A stretch of 63,882 bases of DNA, filler included, from Octopus bimaculoides (Eukaryota): assembly GCF_001194135.2 (NCBI RefSeq). It is 6 parts of 5 records of this genome, joined end to end, with 100 filler letters (N's around TTAATTAATTAA, not from the genome) between each part and the next. Parts side by side here need not be neighbours in the genome. Positions count along the whole stretch, not along the records: positions 1 to 20,465 come from NC_068981.1; positions 20,566 to 44,339 come from NC_068982.1; positions 44,440 to 55,583 come from NC_068983.1; positions 55,684 to 60,141 come from NC_068982.1; positions 60,242 to 62,660 come from NW_026375636.1; positions 62,761 to 63,882 come from NC_069000.1. One strand, 5' to 3'. The notes under the pieces were generated by a model that saw only the letters and a list, made by a program, of their open reading frames with translations, searched no databases and was not told where the DNA came from. The translations under genes were made by a program, and so were the position numbers. Positions 547 through 63,054 of this stretch are shown in pieces. Numbering within the stretch: the first letter of the stretch is position 1; every line of letters starts with the position of its first letter.

Positions 547-1254
547 AACTGTTGCTGATCCCTTAATTATGTTTATAAATGTATAAGAACTTTTAAATAA
601 GTTCTTCACCGATAATGGTGCTTACATACCGAAGGGCTTGGTAAAAATTATTAATTATTAATTTATTAATAAAATAATAAATTGATAATCCTTTACCCTT
701 TTATTTGTAATAATTATTCACTCCCTGATAGTAAACCGCAGATTTTCTGCGGTATTGCTTGTGACGCACATGGTAATTCTTGAGGAGGGATAAGAAATGG
801 CTGGCCTATGTAGGTTCGGAGATGGTTTCACATTGTGCCGATGCATGATGTCGCTCGGTCATGCATGCACAATTGCTAGCATCGTCGAATTTGCAACTGG
901 AATATCATACTGATGAGGAAATGAAGAGTTTTTACCCTTCTAAGCCAGAAACGCGTCTATGATTAATTACGACTGGTTAGGTTCGTTATTTTTTCTTCTT
1001 GTTTTGCCTTTGTGAGTTACAAGTATTGCTATCTGTTAGAGTTTCAGCACTTTAGGTGCTATTTCTGAACTTCGGTATGTGGTGAAGGAACTGTTGCTGA
1101 TCCCTTAATTATGTTTATAAATGTATAAGAACTTTTAAATAAGTTCTACACCGATAATGGTGCTTACATACCGAACGGCTTGGTAAAAATTATTAATTAT
1201 TAATTTATTAATAAATTAATAAATTGATAATCCTTTACCCTTTTATTTGTAATA
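547..1254 (+). mobile_element. Partial-tandem (A-B-A) hammerhead-bearing repeat, putative non-autonomous Penelope-like element / retrozyme
   Basis: 166-bp direct repeat at 547-712 and 1089-1254 (period 542 bp, 3 substitutions seen) flanking a unique segment that contains a hammerhead motif; the right copy runs straight into (TA)n. Confidence 0.6.
904..963 (+). ncRNA. Type I hammerhead ribozyme motif (minimal, palindromic stem III)
   Basis: ATCATA / CTGATGA / GG..GAAG-loop-CTTC..CC / A / GAAA / CGCG / TC / TATGAT. Stem I is 6 bp perfect; ACGCGT palindrome; one extra A between stem II and GAAA. Confidence 0.75.
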
Positions 1255-3596
1255 TATATATATATATATATATATATATATATATATATATATGTGTGTG
1301 TGTGTGTGCATGTATGTGAACAAGGATGGATAGCAGTTTTAATAAGCGATGGCGAGTATTTATCTTTGCACTAACGAATGAATATCACTGGTTCCATTAT
1401 TTTTTATCGAGCCTGTTTATGAAGATACATTACCGTATGCTTGTACGTTTGTTCAGAAAGCTGTAAATGGATCCTCCGTCAGTTTTGTGGAAGAATATTC
1501 CGCACAATCATGGCATTACAGAATAAAGTAACAGCTATTCCACAAACGGTTCTATCTGTATCCTAATTCTCTGGCTGAATCAGAATGCCATTGAATGACA
1601 AGGCTGAGCCTTTGAAGTACTGATATAGTCCACTGCAAATCCTTAGTTACTGTCTATATTATAGTGTAGAGAGCTTATATAAAGGCGGTAAACAAAACTT
1701 TCACAAGAATTTGTTTTAATACCTTGTTAATATCTCATTGAAAGTACGAAAAAGAAAATCACTTGATACGGCGACAGTAAATAGCGATTTAAAAGGGAAG
1801 AAATGGCGGACAATAATTTTAGGTGAGCAGAGAAAGAGAAATACAAGATTAAGGAGAACATACTTGAGGATATAGAGTTGGACAAACATCGATAGTTTAG
1901 CATCAGGCTTAATATAGTATGGAGCGTGCGAAATTTTAATAATGCTTCATATCCAGTGATCACGAGCTAAGAAATACTGGACTTAAAATGGACAAAATTA
2001 TTAATGTTAGTCATGCAGGGTAATAATTTATTTTTAGCGAGAATTATTTAATGTTCCTCAGAATCAAACGACTATTGATAGGAATTGAACTAGAATGGAG
2101 AACGACTGAAAAAAAGGTTGATAAAAACTAGTAACGAAAGTATATAAGCGATATTTATAGCCCAGAGAAACTAAGTTAATGAAATAAAAGTAATGAGAAT
2201 CTTTTAATGTCTGATGAAGATAAATATTTACTACAGGGAAAAAAATGAATTTTCGGTTACATCTTTTCAGTAGTGTATTGCACTATAATTTAAGATAATT
2301 AAAATAATAGTTAATTACAAATATTATATTCACAGTACTAGTTTTTACCATAGAACTGATTGAAAAAATAACCATGAACTATGAGAAATATCTCGAGCTA
2401 ATCAAAAATCTTTTTATAGAAGCACTAAATAGCGAACCGTGTAGAAGAAATCAAAGATTATTAAGAAACAAACGGAGTGAATTTATGTTCGAGAATTCCA
2501 ATATTATATTGAAGATTATAATTTCTATGAAAATCCCAAACGGATTGAAGCGCTAATAGCAATTGAAGTTAAATATCAGTTAATCTAACGAACGGATTAA
2601 AATAATGATTCACGCGATGGAGGCTACATTAACGAAATATAAATAAACAAAATAATTTAATATCAAATTGAGAAGGCAAGAAGATAAATATTTGCCACGA
2701 CACAAGAAGGTGAATTTTCGCATAGATCAAAAGAGTAATATGTAGGATAGGATTTAAGATAATTAAAATAAAATCATAAATTGAACATTCATGGAGCGGG
2801 TTTTCAATATAACATAGGAGATTATAATATAAATGTAAATCCATAACAGATTTACACGCTGCTAGTAATTGAAGTTAAATATCTTTTGATGTAGCGAGTT
2901 GATTGAAATATAATATATTCAATTGGGGAGTAATAAACAAGTTTGTGATTACGAAGGAGAGAGAGGTGAAAATGCCCTAACGTGTGTTTGTTTGTGGCTA
3001 AAGTAATTTGGAACAATAATCCAGGCGAGATTAATGATTATACTAGTGTAAAAGAAACCTAAGTTTTACAGGATGGTATTGTACTAGCCTTTTAATAATT
3101 GAATGGAAGCTTAACCGAGTTAGACAGGCTGGCATAAACAGTTTATAATTTAGAAACGAATAAGGGAGATAATGTTGAAGCTATGTTGAAGTGAAATATA
3201 ATGGAGTTCAACCAATAGGAGATTGGCAGTTAAATTAGAAAAGAGTTGAGGAAGATTAGACATGGTTATACTCTTAAAAACTGATTGTGGTAATTTAGTA
3301 AAAAGTAGTATTATAATGGTCTTATTCTCATGAGTTGCAATATGGTCTTACTCTCTTATTGGTTGTGGAATTCTAGTAAATATGTGACTATATGGAAAAC
3401 GGAGTGAGAAGATATGTTACATAAATGGAGATAACTAATAAGTAATAATTAAAAATTGATTAAAATTTAACATAAAAATTCCCAAAAGAAAATGAATAAA
3501 CCAAAGTCGAACAATGATTAGTTTAGGTAGAGGAAGGAGAGAAACTAGTAAAACAGAGTATATGAAGTCGTTGATGCAATATTATAAATAGCATTA

Positions 3597-3719
3597 TTCC
3601 ACCTTTCATCTTTTCGGGGTTGATAAATTAAGTACCAGTTGCGTACTGGAGTCAATCTAATCGACTAGCCCCCCTACTCCCAAATTTCGGGCCTTGTGCC
3701 TAGAGTAGAAAAGAATATT
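3597..3719 (+). mobile_element. SINE family A, 3' half
   Basis: CCTTTCATCTTTTCGGGGTTGATAAATTAAGTACCAGTTGCGTACTGG...GCCTTGTGCCTAGAGTAGAAAAGAATATT matches the copy at 58860-59010 and the minus-strand copy at 17866-18060. Confidence 0.8.
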
Positions 3720-5297
3720 ATAAATATCATTGAATAAGAGATACCCATGAGAAGAGTCAAACGTTATGAAAAAAAAAAAAAAAAGTTCGAACGTGAAATG
3801 GAATGCAAAATACCATACAAAGTATGATAGCAAGTCATCGATTATCTGGAATACTATCAAATATTATATATGGAAGTACTTCATAGAAAATTTAAAAATT
3901 CATTTGGATGTACTGGAATTGCTTATAGAAAAGCAAAAGCAGCTGATTGTAGTGGCATGCTAGAGTAAAGTGGAGAGTAATAGGCTATACTTATACAAGA
4001 GGAGTAGAAGGTCAGAAATAGTAAGGAACAATCATGTGATTGCAAGAAATTCATTTTGAATAATTCAGTAGTTTCTTCTACTGATGTCCAGTCCTTCGGG
4101 TGTCTCTGGCGAAAAAACTGATACCTCAGCCATACACTAATTTCTTAACGATTTGTAATCGCCATTTCGGTGTACATTTAAGTTCTAAAAGAGCGTTTTT
4201 AAAGCCAATAAAAAATGTACAAGAAGGTGGTTTTCTTTATGTCAGAGCACCGAAAAGAACACACATGTGAGTTATAGGTTCTTTCAAATATATTTGTGCT
4301 TAGCATTTATATGTACTTTTCCATACGACGTTCTTTGCCAGATATTTAGAATCCAGAAGCTTACTGTATTCCTTCGTATTCACTAGCTTGTATATCTCAT
4401 CTGAAGCGAATCATTTTATGTACAGCCAGTCAATTTTATGTACAGCCAGTCAATATTTACTTTCAATTATTAGTAGCACGTCAGTTAGTTGCAAATTTTC
4501 ACTAAGATAATAATCGCCGATAATTTATTGGAATTCTGTAACGACAACATATTCACCTTTGTTTCTTAACAGTATTTTTGTTTCCTATTCCAATTTTATT
4601 TTTGTTACTTGGCAGTTCTATGACATGACGTTTGAATAATTAAAGACACGTTTTCAATGTTCGTGGCCATTTTTCTAATATTCAGATATCTTATTCTAAA
4701 TTATGATCATTTTTGCATAATAAATATTCAGTTCGATAATATTCTAATCAACGATTATTTTAATTATCTTGGTGCTACACACATCTACTAAGATGTACGA
4801 GAAAGTTTACCTTCTTGGTGTGTAGTAAATATATATATATATATATATATATATATATATAGAGAGAGAGAGAGAGATAGATAGATAGATAGATAGAGAG
4901 AGAGAGAGAGAGAGAGAGAGAGAGAGAGAGAGGTAATGGTGTCAAGAAGACCCAAAGGTGTCAAATAATGCTGAGTAAGTGCTATGGACAGACTATAGTT
5001 AAGCTCCAGGTTCGGTGATTATGCGAATGAGGAGTCCAACGTAGGTCATATATTAGCATGCATCTCATTCTGTTAATGTTATATATATATATATATATAT
5101 ATATATATATATTTCAGGTCACTCCATGTAACAATAAAAGATTCTTATTGCTTTTATATCATTTACGTAGGTTCTTTAGGTCATAAATATAGATTTAAAT
5201 ACTTTCGTTTCTAATTTAACTAAACTCTTCAGTCGTTCTCTGTTCTAGCTTAATTTCTACCTATATTCGTTTAATTCTGGTCAGCATTTAATATTCA

Positions 5298-62760: not shown

Positions 62761-62820
62761 AATATAATAATAATAGTAACATCGTTAGGAATGAGAACCC
62801 AGGTTCGAAATTTCCCCAAG

Positions 62821-62864
62821 ACACCTGACGAAGGCTGGAGGGTATATCAGCCGAAACGTTGTGA
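62821..62864 (+). ncRNA. Type I minimal hammerhead ribozyme motif
   Basis: CAC / CTGACGA / A / GGCTG-loop-CAGCC / GAAA / CG / TT / GTG; AACGTT palindrome; predicted cleavage after GUU at 62860. Confidence 0.8.
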
Positions 62865-63017
62865 TAACAACAAACAAAATGAGGACAAATATCCGTCAAA
62901 TGTAAATAATGTAAATAATATATATATGGGAGAATATACAAATAATAACAACAGACGAGGACAGGTGGTGTAAATAACAAAAGTATATATTAGTATGACG
63001 CTCGGGAATACGGAAAG

Positions 63018-63054
63018 TCTTTGACGTTTCGAGCTACGCTCTTCAACAGAAAGA
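63018..63054 (-). ncRNA. Type I minimal hammerhead motif with A6 to U core variant
   Basis: Minus strand TCTTT / CTGTTGA / A / GAGC-GTA-GCTC / GAAA / CG / TC / AAAGA; stems I and II perfect. Confidence 0.7.

Follow-up and report, generated by a model that had tools for sequence, protein, structure and literature searches.

We found that the hammerhead-shaped motifs in a 63,882-nucleotide stretch of Octopus bimaculoides DNA (the window) lie in three families of dispersed repeats. These families are likely terminal pieces and non-coding derivatives of Penelope-like elements (PLEs) of the Neptune type, likely inserted into (TA)n by a Penelope RT/GIY-YIG enzyme; most copies are likely inactive. 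We give this reading a probability of about 0.6. Families A, B and C/D are likely of Octopus origin, and the following features are concerned.

544..712, plus strand: partial upstream copy of family A (the 3' end of the unit), 97.6% identical to 1086-1254 over 169 bp; a pseudo-LTR-like partial tandem
713..1254, plus strand: family A unit of 542 bp, ending in (TA)21; non-coding, with no PLE coding remnant
904..963, plus strand: hammerhead A, with a 6-bp stem I, an intact core and ACGCGT as the palindrome of stem III; cleavage predicted after 957
15084..15170, plus strand: family C copy, core CUGUUGA at 15158, cut by an assembly gap; 92% identical to 63037-63153
43367..43563, plus strand: family D (C-related), about 197 bp with TA-rich flanks; minimal hammerhead 43425-43461, core CAGAAGA (U4A) at 43430
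48400..48796, plus strand: broken C-terminal GIY-YIG endonuclease fragment with a CX4CX2C linker (profile E 3.5e-34); it holds no RT part and is assigned to the Neptune/Nematis type from its motif and the domain order rather than from an RT phylogeny
62761..62918, plus strand: 3' end of family B, minimal hammerhead 62822-62863; ends at (TA)n, with its 5' part behind a gap
62928..63118, minus strand: family C, 191 bp between two TA tracts; minimal hammerhead 63054-63018, core CUGUUGA (A6U) at 63049

The hammerhead-shaped motifs are real as sequence features. A descriptor composed after the motifs had been seen (core with at most one mismatch, stem I of at least 3 bp, stem II of at least 2 bp, palindromic stem III, NUH) matched the window exactly four times, at the four complete motifs. 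Across 60 block-wise dinucleotide shuffles of the window it matched 0.18 times on average (49 shuffles with none, 11 with one), and the exact core was matched in none of the 60. Scanned with Rfam, the three regions concerned yielded no hammerhead family at E<=10, and the 150 of 221 matches listed for the whole window were only microsatellite-driven miRNA-like ones. We take the lack of Rfam matches over these motifs to be a limit of the models for minimal motifs and not a disproof. A chance origin of the motifs within AT-rich repeats would agree with this Rfam result, with the deviating core in two of the four motifs and with the post hoc origin of the descriptor; it is nevertheless highly improbable in view of four matches against 0.18 expected, the absence of exact cores from the shuffles, the position of all motifs inside multi-copy repeats and the occurrence of the same hammerhead build behind PLE ORFs. 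Other loose core matches in the window were without stems and were discarded. In minimum-energy dimer folds, a double-hammerhead fold was not clear for all motifs, and these folds do not enter into the evidence.

All five sites of the initial annotation, the truncated one included, were found where it had placed them, but the CUGANGA core is kept in only two of the four complete motifs. It is intact in A (CUGAUGA, 910-957) and B (CUGACGA, 62825-62860); within C3-A9 and G12-A14, one change each is present in C (A6U, in both copies) and D (U4A). All four do have a palindromic stem III, in which the loop is short or absent. The extra nucleotide described beside stem II lies 5' of it in B, C and D, where it stands between positions 9 and 10.1 together with G10.1-C11.1 (three of four motifs), but 3' of it in A, as an A between C11.1 and G12. 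According to Cervera & de la Pena (2014, PMC4209133), minimal hammerheads that carry an additional nucleotide at 9/10.1 are a signature of PLEs and number thousands per genome, as solo copies. Motifs B, C and D resemble them in the palindromic 15.2-16.2 positions, the extra 9/10.1 nucleotide, G10.1-C11.1, the short stem I and the mostly solo, dispersed copies in several families. The core changes given in the available part of that paper include U3-A8, whereas A6U (C) and U4A (D) are not among them, and the window motifs differ from the elements described there in that no attached ORF is seen.

The Penelope GIY-YIG fragment reported initially is real, but it is joined to no motif and lies about 5 kb from the nearest one. 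It has 141 relatives at E<=0.001, and the CX4CX2C linker is invariant in an alignment; the long relatives combine an RT with a C-terminal GIY-YIG, and RVT_1 was found ahead of GIY-YIG in five of ten scanned. A word-index protein search with the fragment gave no match. A C-terminal GIY-YIG and a CX2-5CxxC linker are likewise described for Neptune/Nematis PLEs in the available part of Craig et al. (2021, PMC8557442), in contrast to which the window fragment is broken and separate. Together with non-autonomous PLEs such as MRC1, these elements show there a (TA)n bias and partial tandems as pseudo-LTRs, as seen here.

Metagenome loci encoding relatives of the fragment were scanned with the same descriptor, and the best 80 of 119 yielded 17 matches in 16 loci, 15 of them on the sense strand. 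Thirteen of the 17 matches are located 48-453 nt past the estimated ORF end, 15 of 17 have the extra nucleotide 5' of stem II, and three carry U at the cleavage position. Locus L009 contains the ACGCGT palindrome as in A, within a U3-A8 core. Against the preferred reading, several matches belong to the same family (L017/L073/L076/L080 and L011/L014/L038), and a sense match was present in only 10 of the 54 loci with at least 250 nt beyond the ORF end. A (TA)>=4 tract follows within 55-122 nt after 4 of 13 matches; for B, C and D the distance is 94-163 nt. In the window, no ORF remnant was found upstream of or next to any motif, and the window repeats have no DNA similarity to the 80 loci beyond microsatellites, so that the link to PLEs rests on architecture. 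We infer, as the initial annotation did, mobilisation by a Penelope enzyme with a preference for TA, since the same build occurs behind PLE ORFs and a TA bias is described for Neptune/Naiad PLEs (available part of PMC8557442). In the genome of O. vulgaris, PLEs cover 6.83% in 190 families (supplement of PMC13282606).

The initial proposal of at least three repeat families was confirmed, with three found: A (904), B (62821) and C/D (63018, 15153, 43426). C and D are counted together because they are related (local score 77, maximum 49 in 200 shuffles); no other pair scored above its own shuffle maximum. The C/D units of about 190-197 bp are non-coding, with no PLE coding remnant. Both ends are common to the C/D copies, the truncated copy at 15084..15170 having the same 5' boundary after (TA)n, and all three begin at a TATAT/TGATT-like point, which is not predicted by random 5' truncation and counts against the preferred reading. 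In hammerhead B the triplet is GUU and stem I measures 3 bp; the translated family B sequence matches a predicted protein of Octopus sinensis at 86% identity. Exact-pattern searches gave no match for B in viral contigs and none for C/D in viral or metagenome contigs, and a reading frame of D had no match in a word-index protein search. We read B, C and D as 3' pseudo-LTR tails.

Family A is present in the window as 1.3 head-to-tail units with a single hammerhead, whose stem II consists of 2 bp, a 4x4 internal loop and a 6-bp hairpin. The unit is short and non-coding with a GC content below 50%, and folds with z -7.8 (0 of 100 shuffles as good; control windows, 22 folded of 57 eligible, from -4.8 to +2.1). 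Strong self-pairing is restricted to A and is not seen in B (z -1.87), C (+1.28) or D (-0.84 against shuffles). A is probably a genuine non-autonomous unit, as it lacks an ORF, folds with strong pairing and shows a head-to-tail junction that recurs in a diverged subfamily; the claim that the elements are non-autonomous thus has fair support for A, but not for the other families.

Contigs and reads were compared for family A alone, using the DNA runs X3 and X14 and two RNA-seq runs; insect and termite metatranscriptomes with small shares were left aside. The family is high-copy in two organisms, with 2322 (X3) and 1599 (X14) Logan contigs. In X3, summed contig depth, which is not equal to copy number, rose from about 1e4 at 789-864 to 2.6-6.0e4 over the hammerhead and to 1.2e6 at 1093-1130, and the profile in X14 was the same. 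The 3' end thus has about 100-fold the depth of the middle, an excess that may partly reflect a module common to several subfamilies. At the hammerhead, the copies vary by 926A, 937T and 936T. Among the 40 of 175 variants listed, 926G>A (49% in X3, 53% in X14) and 937C>T (46%, 51%) form a pair in distal stem II and are likely compensatory, although unphased, and 936C>T (65%, 70%) restores a pair; 14 of 28 listed variants at paired positions break the pair predicted for this copy, and U4C accounts for 17-21% of the depth. RNA reads are sparse (571 of 12.9M and 454 of 11.5M) and occur in both orientations, and 78-82% of them continue into unlike sequence, indicating read-through. No pile-up of starts or ends, or at the cleavage site, was seen in about 6% of each RNA-seq run; the comparison skipped the AT-rich 3' end, where a go-back joint would not be visible, and cDNA libraries may miss non-polyadenylated circles. 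A diverged subfamily showed the head-to-tail junction as a loose end, in 50 and 47 RNA reads.

Among the families, A is the best candidate for a circular-RNA retrozyme, and a fair one. Nevertheless, we consider it rather unlikely that A, perhaps with C/D, is a working non-LTR retrozyme, whose unit-length circular RNA would be reverse-transcribed round the circle to give the partial tandem of A and the fixed-end, TA-flanked monomers of C/D. The ORF-less 542-bp unit with its fold would suit such an element, as would a rod at 727-1033 that encloses the cut site and alone reaches z -11.9 (10 shuffles), the junction reads, the pair changes in stem II, the common ends of the C/D copies and a stem III in A (2 bp and a 2-nt palindromic loop) of the canonical metazoan type. 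Moreover, in both DNA runs the core-bearing bins reach about twice the depth of the bin that separates them. Against this stand the lack of a tandem array of any family in the window, the 3' excess, the sparse read-through RNA, the broken pairs, the U4C share, the extra A before G12, which may impair the core, and C and D folding no better than shuffles. The available part of Cervera & de la Pena (2020, PMC7229834) presents retrozymes as tandem repeats with canonical hammerheads and abundant circles. As described there and in the accessible part of Li, Clavereau & Pollet (2026, bioRxiv 10.64898/2026.07.22.740005), where the concept of a non-autonomous PLE-derived retrozyme is already in print, non-LTR retrozymes share with A the short, non-coding, low-GC and strongly self-paired unit, the type I hammerhead, the common monomers and the proposed mobilisation by PLEs. 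However, they comprise at least two hammerhead-bearing units, invertebrate circles measure about 170-400 nt against 542 nt, stem II is unusual in A, and no circle of A was detected. The initial notion of a circular-RNA-forming retrozyme system is conjectural, with no tandem array in the window, a 3'-biased A, sparse RNA and core changes in half of the motifs. It is likewise rather unlikely that A would be the first retrozyme of a cephalopod, a rod-like circle of 542 nt with a new-build hammerhead, spread to numerous sites by a TA-priming Neptune enzyme, and that C/D are one-round copies of a second circle tolerating A6U.

We also regard it as unlikely that every family, even A, consists of ordinary pseudo-LTR fragments from autonomous and probably catalogued Octopus PLEs, with A an internal deletion never copied as a unit. 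The 3' bias of A, the PLE-typical hammerhead build and the 172 Penelope families already annotated in O. vulgaris point in this direction, but contigs and reads span all of 713-1000 in two organisms and several diverged versions, the junction recurs with its 5' hairpin in another subfamily, and no motif has an ORF remnant upstream.

According to the preferred reading, end pieces and non-coding derivatives of Neptune-type PLEs, a PLE or its derivative would be transcribed by read-through. From the literature, minimal hammerheads may pair and cleave weakly in dimeric form, perhaps followed by ligation of the ends. The PLE enzyme would then nick (TA)n and reverse-transcribe from the 3' tail of the element, mostly halting early, which would lead to the 3' bias; a rare run beyond one unit could produce the 1.3-copy partial tandem of A.

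No earlier description of these families was among the papers listed on hammerheads or self-cleaving ribozymes with Penelope, octopus or cephalopods, though Lunse et al. 2017 or the supplements of the 2014 paper on minimal hammerheads could list cephalopod motifs; PMC13282606 contains neither 'hammerhead' nor 'ribozyme' in its main text, nor 'ribozyme' in its supplement. If A makes circles, it would provide a cephalopod case beside the few retrozymes tested in animals so far (coral, mussel, axolotl, Xenopus). It would also make a non-coding circle and a PLE that targets TA a pair open to testing. Otherwise, the result is an annotation of hammerheads in abundant Octopus Penelope debris. The in vivo role of PLE hammerheads is still open according to the available part of PMC7761336, and the odd core of A and the A6U shared by the C copies offer cheap tests of hammerhead tolerance.

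As to the (TA)n borders noted initially, element ends do abut (TA)n, but such tracts are common: the window holds 62 tracts of (TA)>=5, 15% of randomly chosen positions fall no more than 100 nt from such a tract, and one tract is shared by B and C. The family C copy at 62928..63118 and family B are arranged tail-to-tail.

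The hammerhead repeats of the window are fresh instances of an already known type of repeat. All five sites of the initial annotation were recovered at their positions in the window sequence. A type I hammerhead descriptor that required a palindromic stem III and tolerated one core mismatch, composed after the motifs had been seen, matched the window exactly four times, once in each of the following repeats.

713-1254: family A, 542-bp unit followed by (TA)21, with 169 bp of its 3' end repeated ahead of it (97.6%) as a partial tandem; hammerhead 910-957 (+)
43367-43563: family D copy, about 197 bp, TA-rich flanks on both sides; hammerhead 43430-43456 (+)
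62825-62860 (+): hammerhead of family B, which ends at a TA tract common to C, tail-to-tail, its 5' part hidden by a gap
62928-63118: family C copy, 191 bp, TA-rich flanks on both sides; hammerhead 63049-63023 (-)

Sixty dinucleotide shuffles gave a mean of 0.18 matches and none with an exact core. An Rfam scan gave no hammerhead match over any of the three regions holding the motifs. The extra nucleotide beside stem II is present in all four, as had been noted, but its side differs, being 5' in B, C and D and 3' in A. The core CUGANGA is intact only in A (910) and B (62825), while the D core (43430) carries U4A and the C core (63049) A6U, a change also found in the gap-truncated C copy at 15158. 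Since a published survey (PMC3088659) describes poor cleavage for a natural A6C variant and lower in vitro activity for U4C, the C and D hammerheads are, by analogy, likely to be weak or dead.

C and D are related (alignment score 77, shuffle maximum 49), and no other pair exceeds its own shuffles. All three C/D copies have an identical start point; such fixed ends could come from one-round circle copying or from microhomology where the parent's 3' UTR is TA-rich. Regarding the proposed bordering by (TA)n, TA tracts are frequent, the window holding 62 of them and 15% of random positions lying within 100 nt of one; the link to TA therefore rests on the element ends abutting TA exactly. The translation of one B reading frame matches, at 86% over 36 aa, a protein predicted for Octopus sinensis, which makes an Octopus origin of this sequence likely. 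Judged from the codons, the amino acids of that protein would fit both an intact core and a GUU triplet.

Two other dispersed repeats adjoin these families. One of about 380 bp, which we take to be SINE-like, occurs at 14669-15047, 21404-21780 and 6100-6257 (copies 82-85% alike), the copy at 14669 adjoining a C copy across a TA tract. The other (43192-43350 and 63702-63862, 75% alike) lies directly upstream of D and presumably resembles an abundant octopus SINE.

The GIY-YIG fragment of a Penelope-like element (PLE), invoked earlier as the source of mobility, is present and has relatives bearing a reverse transcriptase, but it is attached to none of the hammerheads. It is broken, with TA on its borders, and is the sole PLE coding remnant in the window. 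With 48569-48751 as query, 141 relatives were retrieved; among 10 scanned, GIY-YIG was found in 9 (8 over the cut-off), 5 of them with RVT_1 upstream too. The CX4CX2C linker is invariant across the alignment of the fragment and fits the Neptune/Nematis type (PMC8557442). A mariner transposase (HTH_48) and several LINE reverse transcriptases (RVT_1, zf-RVT) have left broken remnants at 22409-22747, 34609-34971, 55335-55583 and 56572-58517.

A metagenome scan with relatives of the fragment, of which the best 80 of 119 loci were kept, gave 17 descriptor matches in 16 loci, 15 in sense and 14 with a canonical core; 13 of the 17 lie 48-453 nt past the estimated ORF end. Only 10 of the 54 loci having enough downstream DNA carry a match, and some matches represent one family. 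The extra nucleotide is 5' in 15/17, and U occupies the cleavage position in 3/17. Three additional U3-A8 motifs were found, one with the ACGCGT palindrome of A. A (TA)n follows 4 of the 13 post-ORF motifs by 55-122 nt, near the values of B, C and D (94, 123 and 163). Except for microsatellites, the best 80 loci share no DNA similarity with the window families. This build behind PLE ORFs agrees with the 2014 description (PMC4209133), which presents minimal hammerheads as PLE marks, mostly solo leftovers with weak cleavage even as dimers. At one locus (L009:2616-2976), a PLE 3' end holds a U3-A8 hammerhead and a pyrimidine-rich tail. Its short (TA)n runs directly into an apparent ORF start, an arrangement that recalls head-to-tail copies joined at TA.

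B, C and D probably behave like the minimal hammerheads of PLEs, with which B agrees on the structural features tested. Family A resembles retrozymes as portrayed in PMC7229834 and bioRxiv 10.64898/2026.07.22.740005, but within the window its unit is not fully tandem. The preprint has already made the case for animal retrozymes as non-autonomous derivatives of PLEs, and in it cleavage was seen in only 1/9 dimers assayed. In O. vulgaris, PLEs occupy 6.83% of the genome (190 families; PMC13282606 supplement). Our literature search, with Lunse et al. 2017, the 2014 supplements and repeat databases outside its scope, gave no account of hammerheads in these elements.

The A unit folds with a z of -7.8, equalled in 0/100 shuffles, and its rod (727-1033) alone with -11.9; the 22 controls folded of 57 eligible windows ranged from -4.8 to +2.1, and the folds of B, C and D are not outstanding against shuffles. 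The lowest control (-4.8, 6 shuffles), 21997-22538, lies close to where the mariner remnant begins. Four runs were aligned on 713-1260. From the DNA runs of two organisms, 2322 (X3) and 1599 (X14) contigs were placed. Summed depth, which gives no copy number, is biased to the 3' end, about 100-fold higher at 1093-1130 than at 789-864, as expected from 5'-truncated dispersed insertions or a 3' module common to subfamilies, not from whole-unit arrays. Bins with the two core halves have about twice the depth of the bin between. Stem covariation, which the initial annotation had suggested seeking, may show in 926G>A and 937C>T, whose frequencies match in each of the two DNA runs, and in 936C>T, which restores a pair broken in the window's copy (all unphased); among 40 of the 175 variants, 14 of the 28 at paired positions break a predicted pair of that copy, which counts against a conserved rod. 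U4C accounts for 17-21% of depth across A copies, and the variants listed include no change at the extra A (947).

In RNA, 571 of 12.9M (X21) and 454 of 11.5M (X23) reads, from about 6% of each run, aligned on A, some in each orientation. Just 3 and 1 were at least 99% alike, and 78-82% continue into unlike sequence. Neither run shows a pile-up of read starts or ends anywhere, the predicted cut 957/958 included. In 50 and 47 reads, from a diverged subfamily, a loose end joins the last bases of the unit to the first, so the head-to-tail junction also exists outside the window locus. The suggested circular RNA thus finds neither support as an abundant species in X21 and X23 nor refutation, as alignment skipped the AT-rich 3' end as repeat, hiding go-back joints, and cDNA libraries may miss circles.

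Mobilization may start with read-through transcription of the element, after which a Neptune-type enzyme would use nicked (TA)n for target-primed reverse transcription. Most such events would end early, and copying would occasionally pass one unit. By analogy with the literature, dimers might be cleaved and ligated into circles.

Beside gaps, the 100% identical duplications 5299-5361/6503-6565 and 6317-6492/7826-8001 are probably assembly artefacts. Several gaps contain a 12-bp spacer, TTAATTAATTAA, between 44 Ns.
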